31,654 nt of DNA, taken from a virus. Location of the stretch: UHGV virus genome UHGV-1544975; one strand, written 5' to 3'. The stretch's first letter is position 1. The number at the start of each line of letters is the position of its first letter. The notes beneath the pieces are model-generated. The model was not told the origin of the DNA. It did no database searches and saw only the letters and a program-made list of their open reading frames with translations. A program made the translations under genes and the position numbers. Positions 398 to 26,458 of the stretch are shown here, piece after piece.

Positions 398-409
398 GTG
401 ACATGTCAC
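398..409. repeat. 12-bp perfect palindrome GTGACATGTCAC, copy 1 of 3
   Basis: Exact match to copies at 17880..17891 and 20145..20156; overlaps the stop codon of 406..702. Confidence 0.8.
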
Positions 410-702
410 GCTCTTTTTCTGAATGATAGCCATTCGAAAAATGATGACATTCCACCGCAGACAATAGCAAAGATGATCCCACCAAAGAAGAGAAGGCCAG
501 CCTGCCACCACTCCCACCGCCATACATCCACAGCGCCAACCATACCAACAATAGCTCCAACAAATGGAATATAGCTCACGATGAAAGCAATGGGGGCTGC
601 AATTATCCAGTGCAATCCCCACCATGATTCAAGCCCAGCCATAATTGCTGCCAACTGAAAAAGACCAACGACGATATAAACAATGAATCCTATAGCTTGC
701 AT
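406..702 (-). CDS. Small membrane protein, about 3 predicted TM helices (holin-like or exclusion/conversion protein; function unknown)
   Basis: 98 aa, three long hydrophobic segments, AGGTGA RBS; last gene of the late operon. Confidence 0.55.
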   Translation of the reverse strand: MQAIGFIVYIVVGLFQLAAIMAGLESWWGLHWIIAAPIAFIVSYIPFVGAIVGMVGAVDVWRWEWWQAGLLFFGGIIFAIVCGGMSSFFEWLSFRKRA

Positions 703-16965: not shown

Positions 16966-16982
16966 ATTACCTTTCAGGTAAG
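16966..16982. promoter_or_regulatory. Operator-like palindrome ATTACC-TTTCA-GGTAAG upstream of the portal operon
   Basis: One of about nine copies of the ATTACC-N5-GGTAA motif. Confidence 0.45.
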
Positions 16983-17303: not shown

Positions 17304-17380
17304 GTGGCATTAGCTCAGTTGGACAGAGCAACCGCCTTCTAAGCGGTTGGTCGCAGGTTCGAATCCTGCATGCCACGCCA
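17304..17380 (+). tRNA. tRNA-Arg (anticodon UCU), 77 nt including 3' CCA
   Basis: Folded by hand: perfect 7-bp acceptor stem GTGGCAT/ATGCCAC, D-stem GCTC/GAGC, anticodon stem ACCGC/GCGGT, loop CTTCTAA, T-arm GCAGG-TTCGAAT-CCTGC, discriminator G, CCA. Confidence 0.9.
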
Positions 17381-17578: not shown

Positions 17579-17875
17579 ATGAGCGAAACATCAACAGTAT
17601 CTTTCTCCACTGCTTTGTCATCACTCAAAGATGGTAAGCGCATTGCACGTGCCGGATGGAATGGCAAAGGCATGTATCTGCAACTGGTTAAGCCACCGCA
17701 ATCGGCCACTCCGAACGAGTGGCGATTTGACGTTACATGCGGTGACGAGTATACATTTGTACCTGGCGTTAAACTTCTACCGTGGATTGGGATGAAAACT
17801 GCTGACGGTTGCTTTGTACCGTGGCTGGCATCTCAAACCGATCTGCTATCTGATGACTGGATTGTAATTCAATAA
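17579..17875 (+). CDS. DUF2829-like small protein (98 aa), candidate Tad2-like anti-Thoeris protein
   Basis: Strong RBS; motifs ARAGWNGKGMYL and PWLASQTDLLSDDW match my recollection of DUF2829; opposite strand to flanking late genes. Confidence 0.5.
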   Translation: MSETSTVSFSTALSSLKDGKRIARAGWNGKGMYLQLVKPPQSATPNEWRFDVTCGDEYTFVPGVKLLPWIGMKTADGCFVPWLASQTDLLSDDWIVIQ

Positions 17876-17879
17876 CACC

Positions 17880-17891
17880 GTGACATGTCAC
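17880..17891. repeat. 12-bp perfect palindrome GTGACATGTCAC, copy 2 of 3
   Basis: Exact match; between the DUF2829-like gene and the large terminase 3' end. Confidence 0.8.
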
Positions 17892-17895
17892 AAAC

Positions 17896-17922
17896 AGCCA
17901 GCCTATGAGCTGGCTTTGTTTT
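17896..17922. terminator. Terminator hairpin (AGCCAGC-N6-GCTGGCT then TTTGTTTT) at a convergent gene junction
   Basis: 7-bp stem with T-rich tail on the plus strand. Confidence 0.5.
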
Positions 17923-17965: not shown

Positions 17966-19441
17966 TTAAGCATAGGGATCGTAATCTGTAATGGCCTTGC
18001 CTTGCTGGTTCTGCTGACCTGGAATTCGCAGACGCTTCGACACAGGGAAAGCAAACGTCAGCAATAGCGCATCGCCTTTACCAGGAGAACGCCCAAGCCG
18101 CTCCTTGATATCTTCCTTCGGTTCGATAACGATTTTACCGTCCACTCGAACTTTGTACTCTGCCGCCGACAGGTCGTCCGCTGTTTCCTGGTCATCAAGC
18201 ATGCCGCCCAGCCTCAGCCATGTCTTGCATGAGTTGAACATCTCCCCGCGCTTATTGAGCATCTGCGGGTCAGTAGACGCGCCACCGAACGGAACAAGTT
18301 GCCATGTACGACCCCAGCCATCACCGATTGACTTCAGACCAGTTCCGTAACCGAAGTCGATGAACACTGCGTCAGCCTGGTACTGGTCTTCAAAGTCAGC
18401 GATACGCTTCGCCATAATCAGATCGTCAGTGGTCTTGTTGCCGGTCCACAGCACCTTACTGTGCAGCCCCTGCCGCAGATATATCACCGCGTCATCAACA
18501 CCGGAGTATGCCGGGTCAACGCCGATTATCACCGGAGCATGTGCAACCTGCGCAGCGGTGACCACCCGTTTCATTGCCTCGTCAGTAAGTCCGGTAGGGA
18601 TAAACTGCAATTCAGATGCATCCGGGAATATGCCGCGCACACGGATTTTAACGAAGTCGCTATCTTCCCCGTAGTCATCAACCCATTTCTGCAACTGCTG
18701 TTTGTTAGTGCCTTCCACCGTCCGGCTGTCAATCTGCGCAGTTTTCCAGCGGTGTTTGTATTTGCGGAAACATTCGCGAAAACGCCCGGTATTACGTGTA
18801 GGGTTTCCGAACGCCACCCAGATAATCTCAGTGTCTTCGTCCGTAAGCGCACCCTCAGCAACTTCCCACACCAGATCCGCAATGTTCGACGCTTCATCGA
18901 ATACCACGATGATGCGTTTGCGCTCGTTGTGTAGTCCGGCGAATGCCTCAGTGTTGTGCTCAGACCAGGGGATTGCGTCAGCTCGCCACCGCTTGTCGTG
19001 CCCAGGATCATTGCTGTACATCGCAGTAGCGGTACAGGTAAACCAGTCTTTCGTGATAGCAAGGTTCGACCACTTGATAATTTCCGGCCAGGTCTTCGTT
19101 CGTAGCTGGTTGTCGGTGTTGGCGGTCACCACGACCTTACAATCCTCGCAAGTGGACATGCCCCAGTTGATCAGCATTGAGATGAATGCGGATTTACCAA
19201 TACCGTGACCCGAAGCACGTGCCAGCATAAGCGGCTGATAGCGCGTCTCTGGATTCTGCAGGTGATCACGTATCTCTCGGAACGCATCAGCCTGCCACTG
19301 ACGTGGGCCGGTAGCATGTGCCAGTTCAGTCCCCTCTTCCCCCCACGGGAACGCATAGAGGGCATAGCCAAGCGGATCGTGAGTGAACCCTGCAATATCC
19401 TCGATCAACTGCTCTTCAGGAGATAACGCTGTATCTGTCAC
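17966..19441 (-). CDS. Terminase large subunit (491 aa)
   Basis: Walker A-like GHGIGKS, Walker B-like IIVVFDEAS, acidic C-terminal nuclease-like region; overlaps the small-subunit stop. Confidence 0.9.
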   Translation of the reverse strand: MTDTALSPEEQLIEDIAGFTHDPLGYALYAFPWGEEGTELAHATGPRQWQADAFREIRDHLQNPETRYQPLMLARASGHGIGKSAFISMLINWGMSTCEDCKVVVTANTDNQLRTKTWPEIIKWSNLAITKDWFTCTATAMYSNDPGHDKRWRADAIPWSEHNTEAFAGLHNERKRIIVVFDEASNIADLVWEVAEGALTDEDTEIIWVAFGNPTRNTGRFRECFRKYKHRWKTAQIDSRTVEGTNKQQLQKWVDDYGEDSDFVKIRVRGIFPDASELQFIPTGLTDEAMKRVVTAAQVAHAPVIIGVDPAYSGVDDAVIYLRQGLHSKVLWTGNKTTDDLIMAKRIADFEDQYQADAVFIDFGYGTGLKSIGDGWGRTWQLVPFGGASTDPQMLNKRGEMFNSCKTWLRLGGMLDDQETADDLSAAEYKVRVDGKIVIEPKEDIKERLGRSPGKGDALLLTFAFPVSKRLRIPGQQNQQGKAITDYDPYA

Positions 19442-20034
19442 TGATTACCATCCTGACGTTCTTTGAGTCGCTTCCTGGCTGCTGCTATGCGATCAGCAAT
19501 TGTCACATTCACATTAACATCCAGACGTTCTTTGAACGCGTTGACATCAACATGCTTACCAATCAGCTCAAGGTTCTTCACCTTGTCAGGCCATTTAATT
19601 TTTTTGAGGATTGTCTCTATCGAATCCTCGTTCATGTTCATGATGGTCGATGACAGATCAAAGCCACTAAGCGTAGTGCGCCAGATTTTCGGCCACTCAC
19701 GGATTGGTTTAAGGCTCCCATCGTCGTTGAGGATGTCGATCACGTCCATCTGGTCGATCTGCACCAGGCGCATGAGAACGTAATCAGCACTGACGCGCAT
19801 TCGTTTGTTGCGCTCCTCCATCAACTCGGCAATCCGTTTTTGAATGCGTTCATCGCGCATCATGACACTGGCTTTAACTGCCGCTGTATTTGGGGAGAAT
19901 CCTGCGTTAATCGCTGCCTGAGTCTGGTTTTCAGGCGTTTTGATGTATGACTGGCAATAAGCCTCCTGCATTGCTGTTAGTGGCTTAAATTGCGTTGATT
20001 TGCGTTTATAGGTTTTAGGTTCAGCAGGCATCAT
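19438..20034 (-). CDS. Terminase small subunit (about 198 aa)
   Basis: Small-terminase-like DNA-binding N-terminus (TAMQEAYCQSYIKTPENQTQAAINAGFS); track start 20112 is probably over-extended; tandem ATGs at 20034 and 20031 follow GGTGG. Confidence 0.65.
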   Translation of the reverse strand: MMPAEPKTYKRKSTQFKPLTAMQEAYCQSYIKTPENQTQAAINAGFSPNTAAVKASVMMRDERIQKRIAELMEERNKRMRVSADYVLMRLVQIDQMDVIDILNDDGSLKPIREWPKIWRTTLSGFDLSSTIMNMNEDSIETILKKIKWPDKVKNLELIGKHVDVNAFKERLDVNVNVTIADRIAAARKRLKERQDGNQ

Positions 20035-20050
20035 AACCACCGTGGTAATA

Positions 20051-20067
20051 GTTACCGTTGTGGTAAT
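20051..20067. promoter_or_regulatory. Operator-like palindrome (minus-strand reading ATTACC-ACAAC-GGTAAC) with an extra GGTAAT half-site, just upstream of the terminase gene
   Basis: Motif copy read directly; lies inside the spurious N-terminal extension of the track ORF. Confidence 0.45.
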
Positions 20068-20069
20068 AG

Positions 20070-20103
20070 TACCATACAAAATAAAGCCGCCATAGTTGGC
20101 GGC
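20070..20103 (-). terminator. Rho-independent terminator (GCCGCCA-N4-TGGCGGC then UUUAUUUUGUAU on the minus strand) separating accessory genes from the terminase operon
   Basis: 7-bp perfect stem, T-rich tail on the minus strand. Confidence 0.55.
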
Positions 20104-20144
20104 AGTATTCAAAACCCATCAAATTCATCATGCATAATCTACTC

Positions 20145-20156
20145 GTGACATGTCAC
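20145..20156. repeat. 12-bp perfect palindrome GTGACATGTCAC, copy 3 of 3
   Basis: Exact match; overlaps the stop codon of 20153..20494 in the same register as copy 1. Confidence 0.8.
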
Positions 20157-20494
20157 ACTATTAATTTCGTTTCATGCCAGCCTTTAGTCACCCAGCATTG
20201 CGAGTCACCATTACACGGGCATGAATTAACTGGAACTCTCTCGCCGCACTTACCGCAACATTTTCTGCTGATCGATTTTATACGCCCGCGCACGCGTGCA
20301 TCATCCTGGCGGATCAGTAACGCTATATACTCACCAAATTCGTAAGGCGCACGCCCGGGGCGACGCGTGGCACAGTTACGCTCCAGCATTTCAATTTCCT
20401 GAGCATCCAGCACAATCTCCAGCTTACGTACACCGGATGCAGCTTGTCTGGCTCTCTGAGCGGCTTTGCGCTCTGCTGCTGATTTAGCCATCAA
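20153..20494 (-). CDS. Cys-rich small protein (113 aa), possible zinc-binding regulator
   Basis: Basic N-terminus; C-terminal cysteine cluster CCGKCGERVPVNSCPCNGDSQCW; sits where lambdoid phages carry Q. Confidence 0.4.
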   Translation of the reverse strand: MMAKSAAERKAAQRARQAASGVRKLEIVLDAQEIEMLERNCATRRPGRAPYEFGEYIALLIRQDDARVRGRIKSISRKCCGKCGERVPVNSCPCNGDSQCWVTKGWHETKLIV

Positions 20495-23274: not shown

Positions 23275-23353
23275 TTTACCTCTAAGGTAATTAAAAACCA
23301 CATAAGACACGAAATCAATAGAGTTTAGAATATTTTATTACCCAACAGGTAAT
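23275..23353. promoter_or_regulatory. Two operator-like palindromes (TTTACC-TCTAA-GGTAAT at 23275..23291; ATTACC-CAACA-GGTAAT at 23337..23353)
   Basis: Read directly; the first abuts the start codon of 22928..23272. Confidence 0.5.
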
Positions 23354-23389: not shown

Positions 23390-24190
23390 TTACTTGATAA
23401 ATCCTGCCGCCTTTCCCCGCCTGTATTCCTCCATCAGCCACTGCGCCGGTGTTATTCCCCCAAGGGTGGCGGCGTTAGGCATGCACCCGAAACTTCGCCC
23501 TGGTGGATGGTAAACGTCTCTCCCTGTGTCCGGAGGCGTACTCATGGGTTCTGGCTTTGCCTGTATGCTGATCACCGGATCGGGTATCTGCTGTCCGGAA
23601 GCCACCTTTTTCGCCCAATCATCGAGCAGCCTGCGCGCGTGTTTCTCAACCTCTATCTCGCTAAGCTGGCGCTGATACATTGCACGGCGGGTATCACATA
23701 CGACCCAGTACATAACCGGATGCCGCCACGGGAATCTTTCGGGACCACCAGGATATAAACTTTTTTCCTTGCTGTACCGGTGAAACTCCGTCATCACATC
23801 GTCAATGGTGACGCCAAGAACCATCTTGCTGTCTTTGCACCACTTGATGAATTGCCCTGGCGACGGCCAGAACGGAGATTCACTGGCGCGGGCGTGGCGC
23901 ATACCAGCAGAAACCTGTTCACGGGTTCGGATCCCCCCTTCGGCAAACGCAGCAATCCACTGCTGTTTTGCAGCAACTTCCTGCTCTGGCGTCTTCAGGT
24001 TGGTTACCACTGCCGCCGGAAACAGTTGTTTCAGCTGTTTGAAAAGGGCATCAACAAGCCTCTCTGCTGACATGTTCACCACGTTGTCATTGTTGGTGTA
24101 CTGATGCTCATAACCTGACATGCGAGAAAGGGCTTCTCCGTCACGGTTTTGTATCGCGGTAAAAACGTTGTTCACAAGAAATCCTCCCAT
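23390..24190 (-). CDS. Replication protein P-like (helicase loader), lambda P family
   Basis: Segments FPAAVVTNLK...QQWIAAFAEGGIRTREQVSAGMRHARA...PFWPSPGQFIKWCKD align with remembered lambda P FPASLANRD...RRQWVLAFRENGITTMEQVNAGMRVARR...PFLPSPGQFVAWCRE. Confidence 0.75.
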   Translation of the reverse strand: MGGFLVNNVFTAIQNRDGEALSRMSGYEHQYTNNDNVVNMSAERLVDALFKQLKQLFPAAVVTNLKTPEQEVAAKQQWIAAFAEGGIRTREQVSAGMRHARASESPFWPSPGQFIKWCKDSKMVLGVTIDDVMTEFHRYSKEKSLYPGGPERFPWRHPVMYWVVCDTRRAMYQRQLSEIEVEKHARRLLDDWAKKVASGQQIPDPVISIQAKPEPMSTPPDTGRDVYHPPGRSFGCMPNAATLGGITPAQWLMEEYRRGKAAGFIK

Positions 24191-24987
24191 GCTTCAGGGC
24201 TGTTCCAGTGCGGAACGTTGTTATCAGGTAATGTTGATTGCTTCTGTCTGCTAATCTGCAGCCGCCTTGCCAGCTTCTGCTCCCACTGTGCCTGATGGTA
24301 TGCCTTACCCTCAGCCATCCAGTAAATTCTGAACTCTGCAAGTTCCTGTGCCGTTGGCAGACTGTCCAGGTAGATCCCCTGCAAGGAGCTTTTCCGAAGA
24401 AAGTCATCTGATGGCTGCCATTGTTCATGCATGACAAATTTGCCTAATTGCCCTGGCCCACCAGGAGGAACAAAGTTATTCATCACGGCGTTGTTTGCGC
24501 CGGGGTCATGAGGCACAGAATCCCCGTTTTTTGTCCTGCTCTCCCTCTCTTGGTTAAATGACTGGTTATATGACTGGTTCTGGATCCCGTTTTTGGGATC
24601 ATTCAACATCCCGTTTTTGGGATCATTCAACATCCCGTTTTTGGGTATATTCCCGTTTTCGGTAACATTACCGTTTTCGGGTTCATTGCCCCCCTCCCGG
24701 TTGCCTTTAATGTTCCCGTTTTTGGTTATATTAAGAGAGAAAACCCGCACTCTTTTCGTCGCTCCCTTTCTCTCTCCGGTATCTGAAATAAGCCCCATTT
24801 TCATGAGCGATATAAGCCCGGCCTGCACGGTTTTTTTATTCAGGCAAGTGTCTTTAACGAGGCGTTCTATGCTGGGGTAGCAGAGGTTATATTCATCGGC
24901 TCTGTCAGCCATCGAGAGCAGTATGAGCTTTAATGACGAGCTACCTGGATCTGTCTCCCAGGCCCAATCTGTTGCATGTCTGCTCAT
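24172..24987 (-). CDS. Replication initiator, lambda O-like (271 aa), with embedded iterons
   Basis: N-terminal HTH-like region; central Asn/Gly/Pro-rich repeats encoded by tandem DNA repeats; immediately upstream of the P-like gene. Confidence 0.65.
   Translation of the reverse strand: MSRHATDWAWETDPGSSSLKLILLSMADRADEYNLCYPSIERLVKDTCLNKKTVQAGLISLMKMGLISDTGERKGATKRVRVFSLNITKNGNIKGNREGGNEPENGNVTENGNIPKNGMLNDPKNGMLNDPKNGIQNQSYNQSFNQERESRTKNGDSVPHDPGANNAVMNNFVPPGGPGQLGKFVMHEQWQPSDDFLRKSSLQGIYLDSLPTAQELAEFRIYWMAEGKAYHQAQWEQKLARRLQISRQKQSTLPDNNVPHWNSPEAWEDFL
24585..24732. repeat. Iteron array (putative replication origin) inside the O-like gene
   Basis: TCCCGTTTTTGGGATCATTCAACA occurs twice in tandem, followed by degenerate copies (TCCCGTTTTTGGGTATAT, TCCCGTTTTCGGTAACATTA, CCGTTTTCGGGTTCATTGCC, TTCCCGTTTTTGGTTATATT). 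Confidence 0.65.
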
Positions 24988-25282: not shown

Positions 25283-25298
25283 ATTACCTTTGAGGTAC
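25283..25298. promoter_or_regulatory. Imperfect operator-like palindrome ATTACC-TTTGA-GGTAC
   Basis: Read directly. Confidence 0.35.
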
Positions 25299-25584: not shown

Positions 25585-25738
25585 AGCTATTGCCTGATAT
25601 TTATTTCAGATAATAAATATTCACCCATAAGGTAACAAAAATCAAGGATAGTTACCTATGGGGTGCATTTACCTGTTGGGTAATATTGCTTTAAATTGAA
25701 TCATCTACTGATTCATATATGAGGCGATTTTCCAGAAA
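25585..25738. promoter_or_regulatory. Immunity switch intergenic region with divergent promoters and operators
   Basis: AT-rich inverted repeat ATATTTATT-N6-AATAAATAT (25597..25620); half-sites GGTAAC (25631..25636) and GTTACC (25651..25656); palindrome TTTACC-TGTTG-GGTAAT (25668..25684); possible minus-strand promoter TTGTTA-17-TATTAT. Confidence 0.55.
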
Positions 25739-26323
25739 ATGAAAAGTATCCAGGACGTCCGCAGGCAAAATCTCAACGACTTGATCGACCGTGAATTCAA
25801 TGGTGTTCAGACGCGGATGGCAGAAAAACTTGGAACTCAGGCAAATCTGGTAAACCGCTGGGCTCTTGGCAAGAAGGTTATCGGCGACCAGGTTGCACGA
25901 AAAATTGAAGCTGCCGCCAATAAACCCCGTAACTGGCTTGATATTGATCGTTCGCTTTCTCAGGAGGGTTTTCAGCCTGTCGGACCAAGCGACATTGGTC
26001 AACTGGCGGCTCACAACCTGGAACGCTGGATGAGCGAAAGCCGCGACCTTTCAACACAGGGAAAACTTCACCGCGCATCCGGCGTAGCCCAGGTGACAAT
26101 CAGCCGCCTGTTAAACAATGAGGTCAGCGTTTCCATTTCCACCCTGGAGAATGTTGCATCCGCATTCGGGCGTCATGGCTATGAATTACTGATTCACCCG
26201 CACGACCCTGCGACCATCAACTATGATCGCTCGCGCTACGCATTGTTACCCGAAACCGAGAAAGCAAAGATCGAAAGTTACATTGAATTTGTCATCAACC
26301 AGAACGAAAAAAGCAAACAATAA
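25739..26323 (+). CDS. Repressor-like protein with two HTH domains (194 aa), no S24 peptidase domain
   Basis: N-terminal and central segments both look HTH-like; divergent from the Cro-like gene; followed by a terminator. Confidence 0.5.
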   Translation: MKSIQDVRRQNLNDLIDREFNGVQTRMAEKLGTQANLVNRWALGKKVIGDQVARKIEAAANKPRNWLDIDRSLSQEGFQPVGPSDIGQLAAHNLERWMSESRDLSTQGKLHRASGVAQVTISRLLNNEVSVSISTLENVASAFGRHGYELLIHPHDPATINYDRSRYALLPETEKAKIESYIEFVINQNEKSKQ

Positions 26324-26379: not shown

Positions 26380-26458
26380 ATTACCTTACGGGTAATTTTT
26401 TTAACTCATATCTATTGACACCAAACCAAATAAGCATAATTATTACCCCAACGGTAAC
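26380..26458 (+). promoter_or_regulatory. Early-operon promoter flanked by two operator palindromes
   Basis: ATTACC-TTACG-GGTAAT (26380..26396); -35 TTGACA (26415..26420), 17-nt spacer, -10 AATTAT; ATTACC-CCAAC-GGTAAC (26442..26458) over the -10/+1. Confidence 0.5.

Follow-up and report, generated by a model that had tools for sequence, protein, structure and literature searches.

In the window (the whole stretch of 31,654 nucleotides of virus genome UHGV-1544975 that was analysed), the early-right operon ends with a gene for a Cys-rich protein that is a real, uncharacterised regulator. Structure modelling presents it as a ribbon-helix-helix (RHH) DNA-binding protein that also has a putative four-cysteine zinc module. 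A 12-bp element of the form GTGAC-N2-GTCAC at the end of its gene is probably its operator, judging from co-inheritance and copy number. As the best explanation of the whole we tentatively propose that this protein, bound to its 12-bp operator, acts as a roadblock or insulator at operon boundaries. A late-gene activator, as a preliminary description of the gene had proposed, it probably is not. Coordinates of the features are collected in Table 1.

The mechanical open reading frame (ORF; 20153..20494 on the minus strand, 113 aa) begins with TTG. The codon right after it is an ATG at 20491, which overlaps the stop codon of the upstream ORF by 8 nt (ATGGCTAA) and is the annotated start in TL-2011b (339 nt CDS); a 339-nt CDS is likewise found in epsilon15 and phiV10. 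Because of the overlap with the upstream stop and the start annotated in relatives, the product is most likely 112 aa long and begins with ATG (MAKSAAERKAAQRARQAASGVRKLEIVLDAQEIEMLERNCATRRPGRAPYEFGEYIALLIRQDDARVRGRIKSISRKCCGKCGERVPVNSCPCNGDSQCWVTKGWHETKLIV). The length of 113 aa given earlier is thus right for the ORF with its TTG start and not for the most likely protein. The protein matches PHROG 536 with an E value of 1.7e-54 (residues 1–111 on profile positions 2–114 of 115), and a set of 5.8 billion proteins contains 726 homologues, nearly all unnamed, with 152 cluster representatives at 50% identity. An end-to-end match and such homologue numbers mean that the ORF is no chance frame; PHROG 536 is a real family of modest size, whose name "transcriptional regulator" appears to go back to weak similarity only. 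Its members include the last gene of phiV10 and, found by tblastn, epsilon15 gp49, ZF40 gp22 and N15 gp46, which are 76%, 67% and 35% identical to the window protein, respectively, all over the full length. Others occur in phiKO2-type, Yersinia P2-like, Pantoea, Aeromonas and many Vibrio phages. A literature search for experimental work on any member of the gp49/gp46 family found none. Two candidate sources turned out to concern other proteins: the "gp46" among nine telomere-phage proteins detected in lysogens in one paper is, according to the supplement, a cB-like repressor of another family, and the paper on a ZX5 "regulatory protein" covers the repressor, antirepressor and integrase.

The window belongs to the epsilon15/phiV10-type (Uetakevirus) prophages, and in epsilon15-like phages the Cys-rich gene is the final gene of the early-right operon. 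In the window this operon runs from ~25.3 kb down to the Cys-rich ORF and encodes a replication initiator, a helicase loader, a Holliday-junction resolvase, a DUF551 protein and others. Inside the replication-initiator gene (24172..24987) there are six iteron-like direct repeats (24584–24736, unit ATCCCGTTTTTGGGATCATTCAAC), the first five spaced 18–24 nt and the sixth 45 nt further on; they are probably the phage origin. Pfam and PHROGs revealed no Q-, N- or Ogr-type protein encoded in the early-right operon, in agreement with the earlier statement that a Q homologue is missing. Equally accurate was the placement of the gene as the last one before a terminator and the terminase region: hairpin, motif and the start of the small terminase gene at 20031 are all present.

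The AlphaFold2 model, built from an alignment of 74 sequences reaching down to 26% identity, has a mean pLDDT of 91. It consists of helix 5–19, an extended segment 20–29, helices 30–42 and 52–74, a Cys knuckle and helix 100–108. The strand segment 20–29 is coil in this monomer model, and the strand-helix-helix core of ~45 residues superposes at 1.4–2.4 Å on RHH structures, the closest being the PutA RHH domain 2rbf, CopG-family StnY 9kkd, NikR, TacA and AmrZ. The structure prediction that had been suggested as a check was thereby carried out and gave a DNA-binding RHH fold together with a Cys knuckle. Such an RHH domain should dimerise, which agrees with the palindromic target and its conserved half-sites. 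No curated RHH sequence model was reached with significance. Pfam gave neither a family match for the window protein nor a significant RHH model; among the 74 members there were sub-threshold hits only, to RepB-RCR_reg in 3 of 74 (best E 0.028) and to RHH_5 in two (0.013), and in NCBIfam the window protein had a sub-threshold match to the RHH protein YbfE (0.052).

The basic N-terminus (K3, R8, K9, R13, R15) and the C-terminal cysteine cluster (CCGKCGERVPVNSCPCNGDSQCW, residues 78–100) had both been described exactly. Across the 74 sequences C79 and C82 are invariant, C99 is nearly invariant and C91 is position-equivalent, while C78, C93 and C40 are lineage-specific or less conserved. Residues conserved in at least 90% of the sequences are R8, R13, Y50, E54, L59, P87 and C99, and the window protein carries the whole family signature: basic N-terminus (R8, R13), PY...E (Y50, E54) and C-x2-C...C...C. 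The putative Cys4 site, with three cysteines invariant or nearly so and a position-equivalent fourth, lies within a confidently modelled knuckle and is predicted to bind zinc. Foldseek gave no significant match, so the C-terminal Cys4 module is unclassified. The idea of a zinc-containing DNA-binding regulator is therefore supported by the predicted fold and the conserved Cys4 site as far as DNA binding and zinc are concerned, and not as regards late-promoter activation. A zinc finger of the Ogr/Delta or Q type does not agree with the model, which combines RHH with a zinc knuckle. As an RHH regulator the protein stands out by its predicted zinc module and by where its presumed operator lies, both of which are unusual; the fold class itself is ordinary.

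Table 1. Features of the Cys-rich gene, its predicted operator and the terS region in the window
Feature	Position	Strand	Basis or remark
Cys-rich protein CDS (112 aa + stop)	20153..20491	-	ORF list, PHROG 536, relatives' annotation
N-terminal basic helix, aa 5–19 (R8 and R13 nearly invariant), predicted	20435..20479	-	AlphaFold2, alignment
RHH core, aa 20–74, predicted: strand-forming segment RKLEIVL, helix 30–42, helix 52–74	20270..20434	-	
C-terminal putative zinc module, aa 75–112: C79-x2-C82-x8-C91-x7-C99 knuckle and helix 100–108	20156..20269	-	
Site 1, GTGACATGTCAC over the TGA stop of the CDS; proposed operator	20145..20156	.	exact copy
Site 2, exact GTGACATGTCAC downstream of terL, after the stop of the Tad2-like moron (17875, +)	17880..17891	.	
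Site 3, exact GTGACATGTCAC over the TGA stop of the final gene of the structural operon (406..702, -)	398..409	.	
Intrinsic terminator between CDS and terS (stem 20103–20086, GCCGCCAACTATGGCGGC and TTTATTTTGT)	20076..20105	-	terminator scan
Extended -10-like element TGGTACTAT, inferred late promoter of the terS module	20066..20074	-	read from sequence
Two 17-bp ATTACC-N5-GGTAAT-type operators over the -10/start region and the terS ribosome-binding site	20034..20066	.	
Small terminase gene, start at the second ATG as in TL-2011b and epsilon15	19438..20031	-	Pfam Terminase_2, PHROG 51
TTACC-N5-GGTAA motif copies	16967–16981, 20034–20048, 20052–20066, 23276–23290, 23338–23352, 25284–25298, 25621–25635, 25669–25683, 26381–26395, 26443–26457		

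The exact window form of the element is a perfect 12-bp palindrome. It occurs exactly three times in the window and is the sole repeated 12-bp palindrome there. All three copies lie between the stop codon and the intrinsic terminator of one transcription unit, 0–42 nt before the terminator. Specifically, the hairpin follows site 1 after 42 nt (24 nt in epsilon15), site 2 starts 4 nt past the moron stop and ends 4 nt before the hairpin 17896–17915, and the hairpin 397–380 follows site 3 immediately. The moron in question is a 98-aa ORF (17579–17875, +) between terL and the portal operon that encodes a Tad2-like anti-Thoeris protein (PF11195, E 3.1e-24); it has its own terminator, with the palindrome between stop and terminator. 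The same inter-operon region contains a tRNA-Arg gene (anticodon tct; 17304–17380, +). In epsilon15, whose DNA has diverged, three exact copies are found at the equivalent places, the equivalent of site 2 at 2142 and that of site 3 at 19517 ahead of an annotated terminator, and there is a near-copy at the end of the lysis genes. Site 2 is kept in 47 of 80 close relatives.

Outside the epsilon15-like phages the element stays with the gene. It is found on or just past the stop codon across phages of 32–100% protein identity in any downstream context. At the end of ZF40 gp22 it lies 2 nt past the stop (taaTTGTGACATGTCAC), and it overlaps the TGA in N15 gp46 (gcGTGACTGGTCACgg; the N15 variant of the element is GTGACTGGTCAC), in Pantoea AH07 (cGTGACCTGTCACg) and in a member that is 35% identical to the window protein (L120; TTGTGACAGGTCACAA). 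A scan with a single protein gave near-identical loci only; diversity came from exact-protein look-ups and a species-level genome scan. The species-level loci number 27, in prophages of different bacterial species with 50–80% identity. GTGAC-N2-GTCAC is present within −30 to +60 nt of the stop in 21 of the 27 prophages, and in 2 more when one mismatch is allowed. The DNA behind the gene differs among the loci: it can be terS with operators, a LexA-box promoter, xis-int, NinB, DUF1367, an HNH gene or a bare terminator. In the Xenorhabdus loci the site lies 5–10 nt past the stop, which means that coding constraint does not explain the element. In Citrobacter werkmanii and Pseudocitrobacter (loci L092 and L093, 3339–3420) an inserted small gene separates terS from the family gene; the insert brings a TTGAC-type −35 together with a LexA-box-like TACTGT-N8-ACAGTA, and in both the 12-mer ends 6–7 nt before the −35. 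This is possibly an SOS-controlled insertion of antirepressor type.

The number of copies per genome points in the same direction. There are three exact sites in the window, epsilon15, N15, ZF40 and Vibrio phage K233, two in Pantoea AH07, and one plus a near-copy in the Yersinia P2-like phage. From composition 0.03–0.05 sites per genome are expected, an excess of ~100-fold in the gene-carrying genomes. The flanks are Y...R at every instance in these genome counts, which makes the element effectively 14 bp long. The central dinucleotide varies (AT, AC, CG, CC, AG and TG were seen) while the half-sites are conserved, and this looks like the trace of a dimeric DNA-binding protein. We also considered the palindrome as an RNA hairpin; the variable centre and the conserved positions 5 and 8 favour a dimeric DNA-binder over a 4-bp stem. 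Based on these comparisons it is likely that a zinc-stabilised RHH dimer binds Y-GTGAC-N2-GTCAC-R.

Alternatively, the 12-mer could be bound by another factor, a host factor such as MatP or another phage protein, its adjacency to the gene reflecting module boundaries. The half-sites are indeed equal to those of matS, and some family members have no site. Moreover, in an IMG/VR sample at least 120 stretches contain TGTGACATGTCACG (T...G / C...A flank variant only), and among the matches listed 47 show no family gene within the stretch, 27 come from elsewhere in epsilon15-like genomes, and 46 have a family ORF, with the site at the ORF's stop in 43. Some of the 14-mers belong to GTGAC-rich, iteron-like arrays. 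Against another factor speaks the attachment of the site to the 3' end of the gene across at least five unrelated architectures, down to 32–35% identity and with changing downstream DNA, as does a copy number raised specifically in genomes that carry the gene. In addition, prophages of Escherichia and Salmonella reportedly have no 13-bp matS-type sites (PMC3603311). We therefore regard binding by another factor as very unlikely. The arrays of GTGAC/GTCAC units were seen in five IMG/VR stretches without a family gene (L149, L168, L178, L197 and L235) and may be iterons of an unrelated protein.

The preliminary description had connected the Cys-rich protein to the terminase genes through the motif ATTACC-N5-GGTAA, taken as a mark of the terminase promoter. 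The small terminase gene (Pfam Terminase_2, E 1.4e-29), followed on the same strand by the large terminase gene, is preceded by ATTACC-ACAAC-GGTAA at 20052–20067 (exact core 20052–20066) and by a copy with one mismatch (20034–20048). However, when up to one mismatch is allowed, the window contains 10 copies of TTACC-N5-GGTAA as compared to 0.48 expected. Four of the copies (25621, 25669, 26381 and 26443) flank a cI-like HTH repressor gene (25739..26323) and overlap outward-pointing PR/PL-like promoter sequences on both sides of it; further copies lie ahead of the resolvase gene (23276, 23338), of the portal operon (16967) and of terS (20034, 20052). The GenBank record of epsilon15 annotates the equivalent motif sites as repressor-binding. 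From these positions and the annotation, ATTACC-N5-GGTAAT seems to be the operator of the immunity repressor, and this repressor appears to keep nearly all transcription units, the late ones included, under its direct control. On this reading of the motif it no longer ties the Cys-rich protein to the terminase promoter.

A candidate for that promoter lies next to the first terS operator. Upstream of terS, TGnTA(C/G)TAT is present in 8 of 9 sequences, and two of these (L093 and L096) have another upstream gene and no terminator. The -10-like element thus stays with terS after the upstream gene and the terminator have been replaced, which makes it a candidate repressor-controlled late promoter. 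In the window and in loci L092–L096 and L099 it is directly upstream of the first terS operator, and the block TGnTA(C/G)TAT-TACC-N5-GGTAAT-TATTAC-...-GGTGG-ATG upstream of terS is kept in relatives of other genera. In this arrangement two repressor operators would lie over the -10/start region of an extended -10 terS promoter and over the ribosome-binding site. The terminator between CDS and terS is conserved in epsilon15 and in L094, L095 and L099. A sigma-70 promoter between site 1 and this terminator was considered as well and rejected: the stretch is unlike in sequence and length between epsilon15 and the window, so that there is no conserved promoter, and a single GTGACA-18-CATGAT match there is within chance expectation.

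In the activator model that follows from the preliminary description, a zinc-finger protein would attach to the region of the terminase promoter and switch the late promoter on. The gene is immediately upstream of the late operon, the protein has a predicted DNA-binding fold and a Cys4 site, Vibrio phages have a site just upstream of terS, and by position the gene is analogous to the RinA/ArpU-type regulators that lie upstream of terS in phages of Gram-positive bacteria (PMC3152322). Yet in the window a terminator separates the 12-mer from the -10-like element. From the centre of site 1 to the inferred terS start/-10 there are ~92 bp in the window and ~75 bp in epsilon15, and this difference of 17 bp breaks helical phasing, unlike what a phased activator site would show. 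In the Vibrio phages only 11–18 nt lie between the site and the ATG of terS, too short a distance for the site of an upstream activator. Pfam matches to Ogr_Delta, Q or other activator families are missing.

Moreover, the family gene is usually last or late in an early operon and is not tied to the terminase, and it coexists with known late regulators. In N15 the gene is found half-way along the right arm, a long distance away from the late promoter that depends on Q; in ZF40 the genes after it are NinB, an HNH gene and Q; in L125 it lies directly before a Q gene, and L121 is an N15-like arm with Q, the neighbours in both being genuine Q-family genes. In AH07, a phage that has its own antiterminator, the gene ends a leftward operon beside xis. 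The P2-like Yersinia phage has the family member gp15 after gpA and a separate small regulator, gp53, at the Ogr position after gpD, by this position a candidate Ogr homologue. In all these Q- and Ogr-position phages the family gene is away from the terminase. This coexistence makes it unlikely that the common function of the family is that of a master late activator, and for the window protein we consider activation of the late promoter very unlikely, the least probable of the explanations discussed here.

The further sites of other phages lie in transcribed DNA, and none is placed as a typical promoter-activator site. They are found 11–19 nt upstream of start codons, that of terS included, in two Vibrio phages, inside the Q-like gene of AH07, inside the cII-like gene and gp08 of ZF40 and inside repA of N15. 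Another N15 site lies between gene 33 and an annotated terminator that precedes gene 32 (antirepressor gene 30 cluster). In Vibrio phage K233 (L128; 21300–21342 and 35890–35942) the motif TTATACGCG is found 39 and 49 nt upstream of the two start-proximal sites; the difference in spacing equals one helical turn, and the motif may be part of a shared promoter.

According to the roadblock mechanism, the basic helix and the dimerising RHH, followed by the C-terminal Cys4 knuckle, would form a sequence-specific binder for Y-GTGAC-N2-GTCAC-R. With one operator copy on or beside the gene's own stop, gene and site are inherited as a cassette, and about two further operator copies per genome would be available elsewhere. 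In the window the protein would bind at three boundaries: where the early-right operon ends before terS, where the Tad2-like moron ends downstream of terL, and where the structural operon ends. There it would act on transcribing RNA polymerase at 3' boundaries, not at a promoter, and as a roadblock or insulator it would limit read-through from the early operon into the terminase operon. Most RHH proteins are repressors, and because the operator in addition covers the gene's own stop codon, a roadblock is the most economical reading. Such a placement would let the protein limit its own synthesis as well. The late (terminase) operon would be fired from its own extended -10 promoter, held by the prophage repressor through the ATTACC-N5-GGTAAT operators. 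The data themselves show that the protein belongs to its family, which fold is predicted for it, that its cysteines are conserved, and that the 12-mer is in excess and linked to the gene; we infer protein–12-mer binding, zinc binding and the sign and mechanism of regulation.

The same placement would also suit a site-specific antiterminator that is loaded from DNA onto RNA polymerase, functionally comparable to lambda Q at its binding element, so that early transcripts read through into terS-terL and, at sites 2 and 3, onward across the late region that the moron interrupts. The Cys-rich gene is the last early gene, site 1 directly precedes the sole terminator between the early operon and terS, sites 2 and 3 precede terminators too, and Q, N and Ogr homologues are not detectable in the window. 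In locus L101 the order is gene, site, terminator, NinB. The family profile is weakly similar (E 0.03–0.05) to the helix and zinc finger of the RNA-polymerase-binding TraR and YbiI. Computations alone cannot separate repression from antitermination; we think antitermination unlikely. With a slightly smaller probability yet, the protein would be the first representative of a novel class of antiterminators, loaded from DNA and of RHH-zinc type, and the early-to-late switch of epsilon15-like phages, which lack Q, N and Ogr.

Finally, the protein could have an architectural or bridging role in which MatP-like dimers on about three sites pair through the C-terminal module and aid looping, packaging or replication instead of controlling transcription directly. 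However, hhalign of the family profile against MatP was not significant (probability ~1%, E 0.056), and homology to MatP was given up while the analogy was kept. The four-helix bundle and coiled coil of MatP are missing from the phage protein, there is no evidence of oligomerisation, and the positions of the sites relative to genes differ between phage types. Bridging accordingly receives a low probability.

Prophages of the epsilon15/phiV10 type are common in Escherichia coli O157, Salmonella, Citrobacter and Klebsiella, and the pair described here bears on late-gene control in this group. An anonymous "hypothetical protein / transcriptional regulator" has become a defined, testable pair of a 112-aa predicted RHH-zinc protein and a predicted operator of 12–14 bp, which travels with the gene across podo-, sipho-, myo- and telomere-phage genomes. 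An operator on the gene's own stop codon and beside terminators is unusual for RHH proteins and points to control of transcript ends or of read-through. In addition, ATTACC-N5-GGTAAT is now assigned to the immunity repressor instead of the terminase promoter. If antitermination were true, the epsilon15-like phages would gain an early-to-late switch despite having no Q, N or Ogr.

Among known systems, the closest are the relatives themselves. Epsilon15 gp49, N15 gp46 and ZF40 gp22 share length, basic N-terminus, RRPGxxPY loop, Cys4 pattern and the 12-bp element at the stop codon with the window protein, and no substantive difference was seen. Like the window 12-mer, the targets of RHH repressors (Arc/MetJ/CopG) are palindromes of one-dimer size. 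In contrast to RHH proteins, the window protein has an additional basic N-terminal helix with nearly invariant arginines, and its putative zinc knuckle is shared with no solved RHH protein in the search. Its predicted operators are single and isolated, one of them on its own stop codon, whereas RHH repressors use tandem promoter operators.

The zinc regulators lambda Q and Ogr/Delta are likewise small, are encoded at the end of the early genes and are co-inherited with an adjacent target, as is the window pair. However, they have no sequence or fold similarity to the window protein, and their target is within a promoter, while the window site is before a terminator at the gene end. The Pfam models of lambda-type Q (Phage_antitermQ, Phage_antiter_Q, Antiterm) and of the P2, 186 and P4 activators (Ogr_Delta) match neither the window protein nor any of the 74 members, and the DksA/TraR C4 zinc-finger family gave no significant sequence or fold match. 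In having many putative repressor operators the window resembles mycobacteriophage L5 with its multi-site "stoperator" control. LacI offers a positional likeness only: Abo and colleagues reportedly found in 2000 that LacI bound at O3, at the 3' end of lacI, is a roadblock that truncates its own mRNA, with subsequent SsrA tagging. As with site 1, the operator lies over the end of the regulator's own coding sequence; the LacI fold is unrelated.

MatP, the Ter organiser of Enterobacterales and Vibrionales, is an RHH protein whose site, matS, is the 13-bp GTGAC[AG]N[TC]GTCAC (PMC3603311, PMC8669397). Removing one central base from the E. coli matS consensus GTGACATTGTCAC gives the phage GTGACATGTCAC: the 5-bp half-sites are the same, and the spacer is 2 bp in the phage element and 3 bp in matS. 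Like the phage sites, matS sites are few and isolated, and they act in bridging or at boundaries rather than at promoters. MatP has a four-helix bundle and a coiled coil where the phage protein has its predicted zinc module, and the overlap in fold is limited to RHH. The half-site identity is striking and at present only a resemblance, and it raises the question of cross-talk between the phage element and host MatP.
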